A stretch of 21,150 nt of DNA from Myxococcota bacterium (GTDB lineage Bacteria; Myxococcota_A; UBA796; GCA-2862545). The notes beneath the pieces were generated by a model. That model was not told the DNA's origin, ran no database searches, and saw only the letters and a list, made by a program, of their open reading frames with translations. Within the stretch, counting starts at the first letter, position 1; each line of letters begins with the position of its first letter. This document shows, piece after piece, positions 14,657 to 21,150 of this stretch. Both the position numbers and the translations under genes were made by a program. The DNA is taken from NCBI GenBank assembly GCA_039208735.1, contig JBCCQY010000168.1, positions 1 through 21,150 on the forward strand, written 5' to 3'.

Positions 14657-17038
14657 GTGGACCTCCCGATCGATGCCGTGCTGGACGAGCTGTGGACCGC
14701 GACGCACGCGTCCCGCGGCTTTGTGCTCGTGGCCCCTCCCGGCGCCGGCAAGACGACCCGTGTCCCGCGGATTCTCGCGGACCGGTCGCCGATGCTCTCC
14801 GGGCAGATCCTGGTGGTGCAGCCTCGTCGGGTTGCCGCACGCAGCGCCGCGGCCCGGCTCGCGAGCGAAGATGGGACTCCGCTGGGTCAGCGGATGGGCT
14901 ACGCCGTTCGCTTCGATCGTCGCGCCAACGCCCAAACGCGCGTCGTCGTGATCACCGAGGGGATCTTGCTGCGCCGTCTGCAGTCGGATCCCTTCCTGGA
15001 GGACGTCGGTGCCGTCGTACTTGACGAGTTTCACGAGCGATCCCTTTCGTCGGATCTCGCGCTTGCGCTGCTCGCCGAGGTGCGCCGAGATGCTCGGCCC
15101 GACCTCGTCGTCGCTGTCATGTCGGCGACCCTCGACCCTGAACCGGTGGCGCGGTTCATCGGCGACGTTCCCATCGTCCGTTCCGAAGGTCGAACCTACC
15201 CCCTGACCATTGCCCATACGCCGACCGATATCGGACCGGCGAGTTCGGCACGTGAACTGGGCCGAGCTACCGCGGCCGCCGTACGCCATGCTCTTGAGGA
15301 TGCCGAGGGCGATGTGCTGGTGTTCTTGCCCAGCCTGCGTTCGGTGGGGGCTACGGTCGAAGCCCTGCAGTCCCACACCGAGGTGGACGTTCTTCCCTTG
15401 CATGGCGGACTCTCCGCAGCCGAACAGGATCGGGCCCTCAAGCCCAACCCGAGTGGGCGTTGTCGCGTAGTGGTCGCCACCAACCTCGCCGAAACCTCGG
15501 TGACCGTTCCGGGCGTGCGGGTGGTCGTGGATGCGGGGCTTGCGCGTGCGCCTCGGTTTCGCTCGGCGACCGGGCTCGACCGCCTCGAGACGATCCGAAT
15601 CTCCAAAGCCAGTGCCGACCAACGGGCGGGTCGTGCCGGCCGAACCGCACCCGGCCACGTGGTTCGCTTGTGGTCAGAGCGATCGCATGCCTCGCGTCCC
15701 GACTTTGAACCGGCTGAGGTGCACCGTGTGGATCTGGCCGGCGTGGTGCTGCAGTTGCTGGCGTGGGGAGCCTCTCCCGGGGCCTTTGGTTGGTATGAAC
15801 GGCCGCCGCAGGGCACACTCACCGCAGCGCAGGACTTGTTGGCTGCCCTAGGCGCCACCGAATCCGGTGGATTGACCTCGCTCGGTCGGCGAATGGCGGA
15901 TCTGCCGCTTCATCCGCGGCTCGCCAGGCTCGTCTTGGAGGGCGGCGACGATGCGCGATGGGTGGCAGCGTGGCTCGGCGACGGAGGACGTCAGGCATTG
16001 CCCGCCGACCTTGAACGAGCCGTGGAACGCTTGCGTAGCGCCCCTCCACGATCCATCCGACGGGCCTACGATCAGCTCGGTCGACTCACCTCCGAACAGG
16101 GCGGTTCGATCGCCTTGCCTCAAGCAGCCCTGGCCGCGTGGCCCGACCGGGTCGCCCAACGACGGCCTCACGCTCCCGAGCGGGCGCGGCTCGTCGGCGG
16201 ACGAGGGGTCCGCTTTACGCCCGATGACCTCCCTGATTCGCCCTACGTCATTGCGTTGGACGTCGACGATCAGGGGACCGAAGGTTTCGTACGGCACTGG
16301 TGTGCGATTGACGTCGACGATCTGCCCGTCATCGAAGACACCCAGACCCACTTCGACCCGGACGCGGGCACGGTGCAGACCCGCCACGAACGGCGATATG
16401 GCGACATTGTCTTGGCCGCGCATCCCGCGCCCCTCGATCCTCATGCGGCGGGCGAACAGCTCGCAAAGGCTGCAGCGAGCGACCTGACTCGAGCGCTGCC
16501 AGACACGCCCGCCTTCGTGCAACTCCGTCACCGGGTGGCCTTCGCGCACACCCTTGATGACGCGATTCCCGAGCCCAGCGATGCATTTTTGGCGGCCCTC
16601 GTGCCGACGATTGGGTTTGGGCTTCGGTCGCTGGCAGCCCTCCGAAATGCAGATTGGGCAGGAGCGATGCGCGATGCCATCGGGTATGCGACGTGGCAAC
16701 GCATGCAATCGCTCGCGCCCGAGCGCATCTCGGTGCCCTCAGGGTCGATGCGAAAGCTCGATTATGCCCACGATGGCCCTCCGGTCCTCGCCGTTCGGAT
16801 GCAGGAACTGTTTGGTCAGGCGGACACCCCTCGTGTGGGTGGCGGACGGGTACCGGTGCGGCTCCACCTCCTCGCACCCAATGGCCGGCCCCAACAGATC
16901 ACCGACGATCTTGCCGGTTTTTGGGAGCGAACGTGGCCAGAGGTTCGCAAGGAGAATCGGGCCCGCTACCCCAAGCATGCCTGGCCCGAAGACCCGGTCA
17001 ACGCAAGGGCGGAGGCTCGTCCGAAACGGCGTCGGTGA
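14657..17038 (+). CDS. hrpB: ATP-dependent DEAH-box RNA helicase HrpB
   Basis: LPIDAVL, APPGAGKTT, QPRRVAAR, DEFHERS, MSAT, ATNLAETSVT and QRAGRAGR, plus the HrpB C-terminus LAVRMQELFG...LLAPNGRPQQITDDLAGFW...RYPKHAWPEDP. Probable start GTG 14657. Confidence 0.96.
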   Translation: MDLPIDAVLDELWTATHASRGFVLVAPPGAGKTTRVPRILADRSPMLSGQILVVQPRRVAARSAAARLASEDGTPLGQRMGYAVRFDRRANAQTRVVVITEGILLRRLQSDPFLEDVGAVVLDEFHERSLSSDLALALLAEVRRDARPDLVVAVMSATLDPEPVARFIGDVPIVRSEGRTYPLTIAHTPTDIGPASSARELGRATAAAVRHALEDAEGDVLVFLPSLRSVGATVEALQSHTEVDVLPLHGGLSAAEQDRALKPNPSGRCRVVVATNLAETSVTVPGVRVVVDAGLARAPRFRSATGLDRLETIRISKASADQRAGRAGRTAPGHVVRLWSERSHASRPDFEPAEVHRVDLAGVVLQLLAWGASPGAFGWYERPPQGTLTAAQDLLAALGATESGGLTSLGRRMADLPLHPRLARLVLEGGDDARWVAAWLGDGGRQALPADLERAVERLRSAPPRSIRRAYDQLGRLTSEQGGSIALPQAALAAWPDRVAQRRPHAPERARLVGGRGVRFTPDDLPDSPYVIALDVDDQGTEGFVRHWCAIDVDDLPVIEDTQTHFDPDAGTVQTRHERRYGDIVLAAHPAPLDPHAAGEQLAKAAASDLTRALPDTPAFVQLRHRVAFAHTLDDAIPEPSDAFLAALVPTIGFGLRSLAALRNADWAGAMRDAIGYATWQRMQSLAPERISVPSGSMRKLDYAHDGPPVLAVRMQELFGQADTPRVGGGRVPVRLHLLAPNGRPQQITDDLAGFWERTWPEVRKENRARYPKHAWPEDPVNARAEARPKRRR

Positions 17039-17975
17039 GGTAGCCACGCTCGGTGAGCACCCGTTTGAGGCCAAAGGTGTAGAGCGTGCGGCCACGCCCG
17101 TTGAGGTGATGGGGATCTGAAAAGAGTCCATCGCGGCCGAAAAACAAGCTCTCATGGTCGAGGAGTAGGTGGCGCTCGGGGTCCACGATCGAACCCACAA
17201 TTGTCTCATCGATGGCGTGTCGGGCTTCGCCAAGCCTTAGCGCGTAGGCACGCGCAGCTGGAAAGCGGATGAACACCAGCCGAATGCCGCGTGCTTCGGC
17301 CCACGTCACCAACTGCTGGAGCGCCCAGGCTTGGGTGGGATCGACCAGCTTGCCGCCGGCAAGGTGAGCCTCGGCGGACTCGATGGCGGATTGCCGCCGG
17401 ATCCGAGGGGGTTGAGCACCGTAGTTGCCGTTGGGCAGCCCCGCGCCAAATCCGTAGCGGCCCGTGCGGATCTGATTGAGAGACCGCAACTCGCCCATGT
17501 AGGGCACGACGTGCGCCTCGAGCCAGTAGCCGAGGTAGCGAAACGGGTCGCTATGGACCACCGCGAGTTCAACGAAGTCGACGTACTGACCCCACACCAT
17601 CTCGGGGGCGTACTGATGGCTGTTCCAACTCGTGAGCGTCACAGGGTCGAGCGGCACGATCATCACGTCCACATCGAAGTCATGACGCTCGATGAGCGTG
17701 CGCGTTCGGTAGTACGACTTTGTCATGTGCTGGCCGCCAATGGCGGCGTTTACCACCGCAGGGCCGAGGCCTCGCGGGTCGATCGCGGTTCGGGGGTGCG
17801 AATCTCCGGTGATCCAGACGCGGACGTGCGTTGGCGCTTGGGCGACGACGGCGTCACTGCGCAGGGCCTTGTGACGAGGGGCGACGAGCTGCCAGTACGA
17901 AACGGACAAGGCAACGTGAACGAGCAGGCCGAGGCCAAGCCAGGTCAGAATATACGGCCAAGGAACTCGCGTCAT
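16998..17975 (-). CDS. Membrane-anchored SGNH/GDSL-like protein (~325 aa)
   Basis: N-terminal TM segment (YILTWLGLGLLVHVALSVSYW), ITGDSH (GDS block), VVNAAIGGQ and the C-terminal FSDPHHLNGRG (DxxH). Start placed at ATG 17975, since the longer ORF-track extension lies in lower-GC sequence. Confidence 0.72.
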   Translation of the reverse strand: MTRVPWPYILTWLGLGLLVHVALSVSYWQLVAPRHKALRSDAVVAQAPTHVRVWITGDSHPRTAIDPRGLGPAVVNAAIGGQHMTKSYYRTRTLIERHDFDVDVMIVPLDPVTLTSWNSHQYAPEMVWGQYVDFVELAVVHSDPFRYLGYWLEAHVVPYMGELRSLNQIRTGRYGFGAGLPNGNYGAQPPRIRRQSAIESAEAHLAGGKLVDPTQAWALQQLVTWAEARGIRLVFIRFPAARAYALRLGEARHAIDETIVGSIVDPERHLLLDHESLFFGRDGLFSDPHHLNGRGRTLYTFGLKRVLTERGYLTDAVSDEPPPLR

Positions 17976-18086
17976 TGCCGAGTCTAGCTTGCTCATGTGC
18001 TGTGTGCAGTGGAACAAGTGCCCGCTCGCTACCCCCATTGATTCGTCAGGGAACAGTCCTGTGCAATCGCACCGAAGGTCACCGTC

Positions 18087-18191
18087 CTGACGGAATTGCC
18101 GCGTGATTCTTCGAAGTCGGTGTACTCGATGGGTCAGCGTGGTGGCAAATCCAAGGAGTTCAAGCTGCCGGGCATCGTTGTAAGTGACAGA
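18087..18191 (+). pseudogene. Possible decayed fragment of an L-domain/LRR lipoprotein gene paralogous to 19856-20548
   Basis: 18130-18191 reads WVSVVANP, then after a frameshift EFKLPGIVVSDR, versus WLSVRSNPKLRQFKLPKLRVVGGR at 20297-20368. LTELP at 18087-18101 resembles LTDLNLP. Confidence 0.4.
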
Positions 18192-18470
18192 CGTCGACCG
18201 ACGACTGTCGTCGGCAAGTCGTCGGCCTTGAACCTTCACCTATCGGTGCATCCACCGCACGCTTGTGACGAATGTCGGCCTGCGCAACGCTAGAAACTGC
18301 TCATTCGATGTGCATGCCGCTTGCACTGGCACGAAGTCCGTTCGGCGGCATCGGCTGGTGCGTCGCACGTGAAGAAAACTCAACACAGAGGTACTAGAAA
18401 AGTGGAACAACGTAAATCATCGACTTGGAAGCCTTGCGGAATATGGTTTTGTGCGTTCCTCGGAAGGCTG

Positions 18471-19856
18471 ATGACGGCATCGGCATTAGGGTTCCTACCA
18501 TATCTCACGGTTCTAAGCTTACAGCCCGTTTCACAAGCTGTAGCGAGTAGCGCAGGCACAGTAGGGCCCGGCGGAGGAGGGGTAAGCCATCCCAGCGATG
18601 ACGCGACGGAAGACCCCGGTAACACAGACACTCCACATGGCTCAGATGACCTGAATAATCAGGCATATGATGGCGGCGCCCTCAACCCCAACCCAGATAA
18701 TGGACGACAGGCCAGTGACTCCTCTTACTGCCCAATGGGTTGGATTTGGTTCGCGGGAGAGTGTAAGGACTCGCTCTTCTTCTACGAGCAACTGGGGTTC
18801 GAAGAAAGATCAGTCCAGTACTACCAAGTTTATGGTTTCGTGCCTGGCGCATCGGCAACCTACGCGGCCCTGGAGGCATGGGAGTCACTTGCGCCTGGCG
18901 CCGTGTTGTACGTCGAGCAGAAAGACGGCAGCCAAAGCTGGTTGCGAATTGCCGACGTTAATGGCGAACCAGTTATCGTGCGGTCAGAGGAGCTTCGAAC
19001 GAACTATTACGGTGGCTGGTCTCTGATCACCAAGGCAAACTACAACCTTCCAAACCACGAAATTTGGTCGGAGCACACCGAAGACATCAGGACCTCAGTT
19101 GATGATGGGATGACTTCCCATACATACGGTCCCCAATCGATGTGGATCTCGGGAGTAGAGCCGAGTTGGTGGGAAACGAGGGGGGAGTCAGGCCAACGAT
19201 GGTTCACGACTGGCACCGATCATGAAGGAGCCAACGTTGCCATTGCATCTTCCACCGGCGAGGACGCCTGTGAACCTTATGGGGATCGAGTCCGCATCGA
19301 ATTTCTCAGACAATGCGGGTCAGTGCGAGTTGAAATGCTTGATGAAATGGCGGATGATTTGCAGCGCTATACCGAAACGGGAATAACATGGACCGGGATA
19401 GCACTAACCTTCGCCGCAATTGCGATCATCGCGACTCCCGCCGGCCCAGCCATCGCGGCCGCTTCCCTGTACCTTGCCTTGGGTGGGGCGGCCGCAACAG
19501 GATTTGCGTTTGCTCAGGCCCAGCAGAGCCAAGCCATGTCAAACTTTCAAGCTGAAGGCCAAGCCTACTGCGAAACCGAAGCTGCTGATAGAGGGAACGA
19601 GGCGGCTACCAACTGCGTAGTGCAAGTCAGACGCGCGAACGAAGAAGGTGTCGTGGAATTGTTCATGACCGAACCCCCGATGGACGACGGAGAGTGCCCG
19701 CCAGGCTCGAATCTGGAACCCGCCGGCACGATGATCACGTCATGTCAACACGCGGAGGTCATCGTTCACACGGGAGAAGATGACCGGTACTCCCAGTCGA
19801 AATACTGCATTAACATCACACTGAATCGCCCGACCTGTGTTCGAAGGATTATGTAA
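18471..19856 (+). CDS. Hypothetical, probably secreted Cys-rich protein (461 aa) with a central hydrophobic helical hairpin
   Basis: Long ORF in lower-GC DNA with GGAAGG before ATG 18471. Signal-like N-terminus, acidic Gly/Pro/Asp linker, CPMGWIWFAGEC motif, 10 Cys, and the hydrophobic segment GIALTFAAIAIIATPAGPAIAAASLYLALGGAAATGFAFA. Confidence 0.8.
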   Translation: MTASALGFLPYLTVLSLQPVSQAVASSAGTVGPGGGGVSHPSDDATEDPGNTDTPHGSDDLNNQAYDGGALNPNPDNGRQASDSSYCPMGWIWFAGECKDSLFFYEQLGFEERSVQYYQVYGFVPGASATYAALEAWESLAPGAVLYVEQKDGSQSWLRIADVNGEPVIVRSEELRTNYYGGWSLITKANYNLPNHEIWSEHTEDIRTSVDDGMTSHTYGPQSMWISGVEPSWWETRGESGQRWFTTGTDHEGANVAIASSTGEDACEPYGDRVRIEFLRQCGSVRVEMLDEMADDLQRYTETGITWTGIALTFAAIAIIATPAGPAIAAASLYLALGGAAATGFAFAQAQQSQAMSNFQAEGQAYCETEAADRGNEAATNCVVQVRRANEEGVVELFMTEPPMDDGECPPGSNLEPAGTMITSCQHAEVIVHTGEDDRYSQSKYCINITLNRPTCVRRIM

Positions 19857-20548
19857 TGCCAAGGCTAGATATAGCCATTCTTGCTTCCCTGATCATAGCC
19901 TCGAGTTCAGCGTGTAGCAGAAGCTCGTCAGGTCCAGAGCATGACGCCGAATGTTCTACCTACGTTCGTGGCGGAAGGCGTGGGGTTCGAGTCGACTCCT
20001 CATCGGATTTACAGTGCACGGAGGTGGTCGAGGGCAACCTCTCGATTATCACAAAAGAAAAGGTGTCATTACCCAAGCTGCGAGAAATCCGTGGGAGCCT
20101 CATCATCGGCCGTGGCAGCCCTCCGAGCGTATCCCTTCCTGCCCTGACGACGATTACGGAAGGGCTGTCCGTCTACCAGAGCGCGTTAGCATCATTTGAC
20201 GCAGGTAAGCTTCGGAATGTCGGCACCGATCTGGGGGTAGAGCGTAATGAGCATTTGACTGATCTGAACTTGCCATCACTAGAAACCACGGGCCTGTGGC
20301 TATCCGTCAGATCGAATCCCAAACTACGCCAGTTTAAACTTCCGAAATTACGTGTTGTAGGTGGAAGGTTTCAAGTTTTCGACAATCCGTCGGCTGAAAC
20401 CTACAGCTTTCCTGAGCTTTACCTCGTGAAGATGCCGTTCACTATGGACGCGATTCAGTGCGATGACCCGCTGATAACCCGGTTGGCGGAGGCGAATCCC
20501 AGCTTGGACATCACCGTTTCAGGAGGGAACTGTGGTTCCATGCCGTAG
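19856..20548 (+). CDS. Putative lipoprotein with Receptor-L-domain/Ecm33-like leucine-rich repeats (230 aa)
   Basis: Signal MPRLDIAILASLIIASSSAC (non-canonical lipobox), cap CTEVVEGNLSI and ~22-aa repeats (VSLPKLREIRGSL, VSLPALTTITEGL, LNLPSLETTG, FKLPKLRVVGG, YSFPEL). TAATG overlap with the upstream stop and an AAGGA RBS. Confidence 0.82.
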   Translation: MPRLDIAILASLIIASSSACSRSSSGPEHDAECSTYVRGGRRGVRVDSSSDLQCTEVVEGNLSIITKEKVSLPKLREIRGSLIIGRGSPPSVSLPALTTITEGLSVYQSALASFDAGKLRNVGTDLGVERNEHLTDLNLPSLETTGLWLSVRSNPKLRQFKLPKLRVVGGRFQVFDNPSAETYSFPELYLVKMPFTMDAIQCDDPLITRLAEANPSLDITVSGGNCGSMP

Positions 20549-20634
20549 CACGGCGGCGGCGAGGCGCTTCATCTCTTCGTAGTTACAGCCTACAGGCAAT
20601 ACGAGTTAGTGATGGTCTGCACGGAGCCCTAGGA

Positions 20635-21053
20635 ATGGATGATGAGTTGCTCGCTGACCTTCCAGATGCGCTCGTGGTCCAGTGGTCCCATACGTCACTT
20701 GTGTTGAAGCACAAAGGAAGTAGCGAACAACGCAAGCTCGTGGGTTGGTGGCTGGCACTCGCATCCCTTCCAGCCCTATTGCCGATTCTCGCCGGCAGAA
20801 TCAAGGATGTTGCTTCTATTACGGAGCTGCTTGCTGTTTGGGCGCTGGGCCTCGGCATTTACGCCGTGTCGATGGCCTTCCAGGCAAAACGGGAGGTCCA
20901 GGTGACGGCGAAGTCTATCGAAATGCACCGGAGTTGGACAAAACCCGTAGCCCTTGAGGAGGTTCGGTCGGTTCGAGCGCTCGGCTCTTGGGGACTCGAG
21001 TTCACCATGGAGAACGGCCGAATACGCCGTTTAGTACTTGGGGGTTGGCCTTG
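20635..21053 (+). pseudogene. Two-TM membrane protein with a possible PH-like C-terminal part, interrupted after ~139 codons by a group II intron fragment
   Basis: Manual translation: MDDELLADLPDALVVQWSHTSLVLKH...LVGWWLALASLPALLPILAG...LLAVWALGLGIYAVSMAFQAKREVQVTAKSIEMHRSWTKPVALEEVRSVR...LEFTMENGRIRRLVLGGWP, with a GGAG RBS. The frame stays open to the window edge but reads through intron-derived sequence from 21054. Confidence 0.65.
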
Positions 21054-21125
21054 GTCGGGTAGACCGCCGGGTCACTCCGACGGCCCCCCACAGATCCGGA
21101 CGTGCAGATTTCCCGCATCCGGACG
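21054..21125 (-). mobile_element. Group II intron 3' end (domains V and VI), antisense to the host ORF
   Basis: Minus strand reads CGTCCGGATGCGGGAAATCTGCACGTCCGGATC-TGT-GGGGGGCCGTCGGAGTGACCCGGCGGTCTACCCGAC. This gives a DV-type stem with GAAA loop and AC bulge, a fully paired DVI stem with a bulged A (21060), and a terminal AC. Confidence 0.88.
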
Positions 21126-21150
21126 TCACTACACTTCTGTCAAGAAGATC

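Follow-up and report, generated by a model that had tools for sequence, protein, structure and literature searches.

A candidate membrane-inserting toxin with twin C-x14-C motifs, encoded beside an L-domain gene in a Myxococcota genome

The gene pair and its genomic setting

The window analyzed here, a stretch of 21,150 nucleotides, is an entire contig (C168) of the 9.4-Mb, 64% GC assembly of a Myxococcota bacterium, and it carries two overlapping genes within a stretch of lower GC content (Table 1). The first gene encodes P0001, an acidic protein (63 D+E vs 28 K+R) with 12 cysteines, 10 of which lie in the mature part, and the second encodes P0002, the start of which overlaps the stop of P0001 (TAATG). 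From the sequence we infer that P0001 starts at the GTG at 18402, with AGAGGT at 18387-18392; the public gene call P0003 begins 111 codons downstream of this GTG, and the leader and C110 are thereby lost. The hydrophobic leader of P0002 ends in Cys20 in a lipobox-like, not canonical, context, and the protein is probably lipid-anchored.

Table 1. Features of the window and predicted parts of P0001 (feature, position, strand, remark)
Feature	Position	Strand	Remark
396-aa ORF	16998..18188	-	no Pfam match; convergent with hrpB
Low-GC stretch holding the gene pair	18001..21150	.	about 0.55 vs 0.64 for the genome
ORF P0001, 484 aa	18402..19856	+	relatives align along full length
Likely Sec signal peptide	18402..18545	+	A-x-A sites at residues 46-51; cleavage site inferred
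Acidic Gly/Pro/Asp-rich linker, likely disordered	18546..18728	+	variable length
C110-x10-C121 (CPxGxxWxxxxC) mini-hairpin	18729..18764	+	both Cys invariant in 6/6
Predicted beta-rich body, residues about 114-281	18741..19244	+	model, most blocks pLDDT 65-84
Predicted long helix 1, residues 287-325	19260..19376	+	model; C290 and C305
Uncharged Gly/Ala-rich tip of 59 residues, 326-384	19377..19553	+	PAGP inside
Predicted long helix 2, residues 369-414	19506..19643	+	model; C390 and C405
Predicted C-terminal beta part	19656..19853	+	model; C432, C448, C469, C479
Partner P0002, 230 aa, Receptor L domain repeats	19856..20548	+	PF01030, E=8.7e-7, above cut-off
Group II intron domains V-VI	21054..21129	-	RF00029, 36.3 bits, E=9e-5; gathering score 40

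The GC3 of the P0001 gene (0.58) falls within the lowest 0.3% of 4,662 long frames. The join of the gene pair to the host genes is real, since one contig from run X1, which may be the source sample, is identical throughout 16900-20112 and an X3 contig from a different study bridges 17955-18401. Close strain variants were present in runs of three studies, from marine and microbial mat sources, and the four variant sites translated inside the gene spare the cysteines. The X3 strain also has a 40-base insertion at window position 18114, near the start of the 396-aa gene. Genome G004 keeps hrpB and the 396-aa gene together, and the retrieved DNA of G004 and of G002 contains no such gene pair upstream of the latter. 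Around the pair no insertion repeats were found, promoter and terminator matches stayed at chance level, and P0001 has no second copy in its own genome. Pieces identical to the intron end contig C174 and start contig C153, and the window probably breaks off at this multi-copy intron, which would interrupt the last ORF (20635 onward) near 21053.

Within the class, 2 of 182 genomes yielded a member of the P0001 family, as did 2 of the 5 genomes of the genus, and none of the 401 genomes searched from another class did. Scans of non-viral metagenome contigs gave no family match, and no RNA data set was listed as carrying the sequence. In genome G001, the relative P0004 is likewise overlapped by a 213-aa L-domain protein, in surroundings unrelated to those of the window, so that an overlapping L-domain gene lies directly downstream at both of the loci with DNA context. 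As L-domain genes number only a few per genome, chance recurrence of such a neighbor is unlikely. P0002 and the G001 partner share 28% identity (E=1e-9) and four cysteines; the two are not each other's best match among the L-domain proteins fetched. The GC content of the G001 pair falls only slightly below that of the flanking DNA, and directly behind the pair lies an Hcp gene (PF05638, E=2.6e-23; L002:310-873 on the minus strand, G001:C52), the only Hcp found in the five genomes of the genus. In G000, the 92.7% complete genome to which the window belongs, no Hcp gene was detected. Secretin genes are present in all five genomes.

Cysteine spacing in a seven-member family

The pattern C-x14-C-x40-PAGP-x40-C-x14-C given in the preliminary description was confirmed: the Cys codons at 19269, 19314, 19569 and 19614 are in frame in the P0001 gene and correspond to C290, C305, C390 and C405, and PAGP (19437-19448, residues 346-349) is central. 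Such exact symmetry had been considered unlikely to arise by chance. In the 25,380 six-frame open frames of the genome, the pattern C-x(8-20)-C-x(50-130)-C-x(8-20)-C had 606 matches, and 40 of these were equally spaced on both sides, close to the expected 1 in 13, so equal outer spacing in a single sequence is unremarkable. Equal outer spacing together with a hydrophobic center occurred in one of the 606 matches, namely P0001.

An exhaustive HMMER search returned seven matches, comprising P0001 itself, five full-length relatives and one fragment, and the only named relative is a hypothetical protein of a Myxococcota bacterium. Family proteins are 426-492 aa long, and pairwise identity among the six full-length proteins (P0001 included) is 27-35%. 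All ten mature cysteines, that is, the four of the motif and six more, are invariant in these six proteins, where 36 columns are invariant in all. Each of the six full-length proteins retains both C-x14-C spacings, as had been anticipated for homologs, so that x14 was observed in 12/12 motifs of the six independent sequences and in the single motif of the fragment; P0012, a cluster mate of P0009, likewise keeps both. The later C-x15-C and C-x9-C spacings are unchanged in all seven members, and indel-free 16-residue windows across all six rows number only 67 of 360. As the inner Cys-Cys length varies (84, 98, 89, 95, 90 and 91 residues) and PAGP is present in one full-length member of six, the staple appears to be conserved and the perfect 40/40 symmetry incidental; a proline lies within 6 residues of the midpoint in five of the six. 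The argument from symmetry thus fails for the 40/40 centering and for PAGP, both of which the relatives lack, and the real evidence for the motif is its conservation in relatives, not symmetry in one sequence. In addition, the C-terminal region is homologous in all seven members and shows no swapping between relatives. Judged from these alignments, the four cysteines are a feature of a rare, undescribed seven-member family.

Scans of P0001 against Pfam and PHROGs gave nothing significant, and the NCBIfam scan gave one weak match, to HblD, in one of the seven members (E=0.0032). No significant match for P0001 was obtained among PDB sequences, where the best contact with a pore-former was 7nmq (Hbl L1, E=0.26, about 80 positions in the hydrophobic stretch). 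The word-indexed protein search returned only P0001 itself or members already known, and the ESM Atlas gave no usable match for P0001 and two clusters without a name, below 0.8, for P0008. Ten weak genome matches (L003, L004, L007-L013, L039) were dropped after a search with the family profile failed to return them at E<=0.1. The literature searched, in which subscription papers are thinly represented, yielded no description of the family or of a membrane-inserting protein with twin C-x14-C motifs.

Predicted structure and the hydrophobic tip

A hydrophobic leader is present in 6/6 full-length members and an A-x-A-type site in five of the six, as judged by hydropathy. In the mini-hairpin that follows the linker, the C110/C121 spacing is 10 in five members and 9 in one, and the element weakly resembles the chitin-binding peptide scarabaecin (1iyc, E=0.03). 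CP-x-G motifs occur at both ends of the mature protein (18729-18764 and 19695-19745), and one relative has a weak CBM_14 match (E=0.2). An AlphaFold model built from 8 alignment rows (mean pLDDT 62, pTM 0.54) predicts a beta-rich body, which is a candidate target-binding or assembly domain, followed by two long helices that carry all four motif cysteines with a helix confidence of 56-73. Across the family, helical periodicity is 92-94 degrees in the helix 1 region and 96-98 degrees in the helix 2 region. The four C-terminal cysteines are all invariant in the family, and C448 directly faces C469 on a predicted long beta-hairpin (index sum 709, equal to the hairpin center sum of 709).

The helical hairpin put forward in the preliminary description was borne out in part, in that the four cysteines lie on two long predicted helices, but the tip (pLDDT 25-42) was not built as helices; a single-sequence model, uninformative at pLDDT 43, renders it as two helices with the turn at PAGP. 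The six further conserved cysteines, the beta-rich body, the leader and the partner gene did not feature in the preliminary description. With the pLDDT-62 model, fold searches of viral models and the PDB gave nothing at E<=0.001. A search of 48,161 chains, run on the whole model and barely covering the beta body alone, gave a best Z of 6.9, to generic two-helix hairpins, and a second look gave a best Z of 4.7; neither ClyA-family nor viral fusion proteins were among the fold matches listed. Ten short two-helix chains, hand-picked from 50 listed rows, cover the model from residues 177-185 through to 306-316; their end sums are 487-501 (mean 491), and the nested C1-C4/C2-C3 register needs 487. 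On the model, these matches imply an antiparallel stalk near the nested register, a fit that by itself does not prove the bonds, and the two long helices are likely stapled by the motif cysteines around a greasy tip. It is very improbable that the cysteines pair otherwise, for instance as C290-C305 and C390-C405, closing two loops and leaving no stapled hairpin. The limited helix confidence would leave room for such pairing, but a single continuous helix does not allow a bond between two of its cysteines 15 residues apart, and identical invariant spacings combined with a free inner length are what a ladder of two cross-links predicts.

Residues 326-384 contain no charged residue, reach a Kyte-Doolittle 19-mer peak of 1.93 and could form two membrane spans. 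The first hydrophobic segment has a KD of 1.9-3.0 across members, and the tip is free of charged residues in four of the six. Compared with 1,286 membrane hairpins of the same genome, a control whose hydrophobicity threshold favors bulky residues, the tip ranks at the 98th-100th percentile for G+A+S and at the 0-16th percentile for bulky hydrophobics in 6/6 members.

Cysteine-stapled antiparallel helices are known from other proteins. Mitochondrial twin CX9C/CX3C (CHCH) proteins are described as having two equal-spaced Cys pairs on antiparallel helices with I-IV/II-III bonds (PMC12114033, available text), and the vicilin-buried peptides of plants as having I-IV/II-III bonded Cys pairs on antiparallel helices (bioRxiv 10.1101/2020.05.26.118075, available text). 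P0001 resembles both in its two Cys pairs of equal spacing and its predicted antiparallel helices, and VBP-8 aligns to the model stalk over 49 residues (Z 5.2, a generic score; rmsd 3.0). The suggested likeness to twin-CXnC hairpins did not extend to membership, since the spacing is 14 in all 13 motifs, not 9 or 3, the inner linker of 84-98 residues is not short and includes a hydrophobic core, and the proteins have 426-492 aa vs <25 kDa. The sequences show no sign of homology to CHCH proteins or vicilin-buried peptides, and the staple of P0001 would be convergent with theirs.

Possible functions of the pair

Of the readings considered, we tentatively prefer P0001 as a candidate exported alpha-pore-forming toxin on a new scaffold, with P0002 as its candidate immunity lipoprotein. 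P0001 would be exported by Sec and oxidized in the periplasm to form C290-C405, C305-C390, C110-C121, C432-C479 and C448-C469, and might be released via a secretin system or vesicles. The beta body would dock to the target, the two hydrophobic segments would insert into the membrane of a rival while the stapled stalk stays rigid, and P0001 would oligomerize into a pore; in the envelope of the producer, the lipid-anchored repeat protein P0002 would capture the toxin. The invariant cysteines and x14 spacings, the two predicted helices, the unusual tip composition and the likeness to the Hbl L1 tongue make such a toxin quite conceivable. A toxin is made similarly plausible, if no more than tentatively, by the L-domain gene at both loci with unrelated flanks, the patchy distribution and the low GC3. 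Two features of toxin-immunity pairs are present, namely an export leader in 6/6 members and a small coupled downstream gene at 2/2 loci.

The closest counterparts of the tip are found in the ClyA family. The Hbl L1 tongue is described as an extended hydrophobic, Gly/Ala-rich segment that has a proline at its center and is predicted to span the membrane twice (PMC8065917, available text). Like the Bacillus cereus toxins Hbl L1 (7nmq) and NheB, P0001 combines a probable signal peptide with a Gly/Ala-rich hydrophobic segment of ~60 residues, a central proline and two predicted spans, and this tongue feature of alpha-PFTs is present across the P0001 family, with a proline near the midpoint in 5/6. 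The body of ClyA, Hbl and Nhe alpha-PFTs is a bundle of several long alpha-helices, whereas that of P0001 is predicted to be beta-rich with only two long helices (model pLDDT 62), which argues against a toxin of the Hbl kind, and P0001 is therefore kept outside the ClyA family. P0001 further differs from that family in its ten invariant cysteines with twin C-x14-C, and from the Hbl/ClyA systems in that an L-domain protein takes the place of a second ClyA-like subunit as its partner. The matches to Hbl L1 are weak, do not extend beyond the hydrophobic stretch and could be due to composition; this too, like the failure of the better model to build the tip as helices, speaks against the toxin proposal.

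As a rule, the gene of an antibacterial pore-former has an immunity gene next to it, and the immunity proteins are normally located in the cytoplasmic membrane, with one outer-membrane exception named, according to the available text of one account (PMC9558359). The same text describes colicins as exiting by lysis, with the hairpin buried among about eight other helices and with cytoplasmic-membrane immunity. In pore-forming colicins, as proposed for P0001, the part that inserts is a hydrophobic hairpin of two segments, and a small gene adjoins (PMC9558359); P0001 differs from them in its Sec-type leader, predicted Cys-stapled stalk and probable lipoprotein partner. Immunity proteins with leucine-rich repeats have been reported, and one that is a lipoprotein is described as exceptional (PMC3482391, available text); by analogy with the immunity proteins in these two sources (PMC9558359, PMC3482391), the probable lipid anchor of P0002 would count against an immunity role. 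Against the toxin proposal there also stand the facts that the partners are not mutual best matches, that L-domain proteins are widespread and that the linkage comes from two loci, those of two of the seven members, as well as the closeness in GC of the G001 pair to its flanks and a C-terminus that is not swapped as in polymorphic toxins. Two-gene toxin-immunity loci of myxobacteria, often on mobile DNA, are known as SitA/SitI, where SitA is a lipoprotein with a polymorphic C-terminal nuclease (PMC8546572, available text). P0001/P0002 is likewise a two-gene locus, by inference from the same phylum, but here the second gene encodes the probable lipoprotein, and the C-terminus of P0001 is conserved and membrane-directed. 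Assignment to polymorphic toxins, SitA included, was rejected because the C-terminal region is homologous in 7/7 members.

As the main alternative, the same anatomy could belong to a resident protein of the inner membrane, in which the two segments form a permanent anchor with a tiny cytoplasmic turn, the arms and disulfides are periplasmic, and the stalk keeps the beta body in contact with the partner lipoprotein in an envelope, sensing or adhesion complex. We consider this unlikely, though not strongly so. The leader and two spans would provide the topology, every cysteine is explained equally well, the hydrophobicity of the first segment would suffice for a true span, and L-domain lipoproteins are common envelope proteins in this bacterial family; however, the turn lacks Lys and Arg in five of the six full-length members, small residues are far more abundant in its hairpin than in other membrane hairpins of this genome, and a cytoplasmic domain for signaling is missing. 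The rare, non-syntenic, low-GC occurrence also fits conflict genes better than housekeeping genes. A further alternative, and an improbable one, retains the membrane-inserting protein but makes the partner a helper instead of an antidote, which would mask the tip, tether the protein to the surface or to vesicles, or trigger it; prey bacteria or protists would be conceivable targets, with a pore or membrane fusion as the outcome. The anatomy is the same as for a toxin, and a soluble state would need shielding for 59 uncharged residues, for which only two long helices are predicted. The weak scarabaecin-like motif would hint at glycan binding, although at E=0.03 this hint is not significant. In the usual toxin-immunity order, the membrane-active gene comes first and is overlapped by a small second gene, and P0001-P0002 follows this order, which argues against a helper. 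In favor of a helper, MafA/MafB is a reported case of a toxin gene accompanied by a lipoprotein that serves as anchor (PMC3482391, available text). Cargo or a translocator of a type VI or phage-tail-like system is suggested by the sole Hcp of the five genus genomes, directly behind the G001 pair, but is hardly to be credited: no Hcp was found in the 92.7% complete genome of the window, and the Sec-type leader and ten conserved cysteines point to periplasmic folding. Type VI delivery was rejected on the grounds of the leader and the absence of a detected Hcp from G000.

Beyond the tentative toxin assignment, we raise the rather doubtful possibility that a beta docking body and a stalk with two disulfides 15 residues apart, driving a 60-residue Gly/Ala tip, represent a new class of pore-forming or membrane-fusing proteins without a relative of solved structure, which the L-domain lipoprotein would neutralize or arm and which would serve as a weapon in myxobacterial predation or rivalry. 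Very little is known of the weapons that uncultured Myxococcota lineages use. If P0001 is pore-forming, the alpha-pore-forming class gains a scaffold and a bacterial L-domain lipoprotein a defined job, and the disulfide-locked stalk would offer a clean test of hairpin insertion without the usual unfolding of a helical bundle. If P0001 instead resides in the inner membrane, it would be a rare component of the envelope, and its interest would be modest.

Of the 49 genomes of the bacterial family, 33 encode L-domain proteins, most of which are long. An expanded set of such long proteins was observed on contigs C1, C24, C27, C47 and C74 of the window's genome and in relatives, several of them with Cys/Asp-rich repeats ahead of the L repeats, and the copy at C27:60570-62359 appears to be split across two frames.
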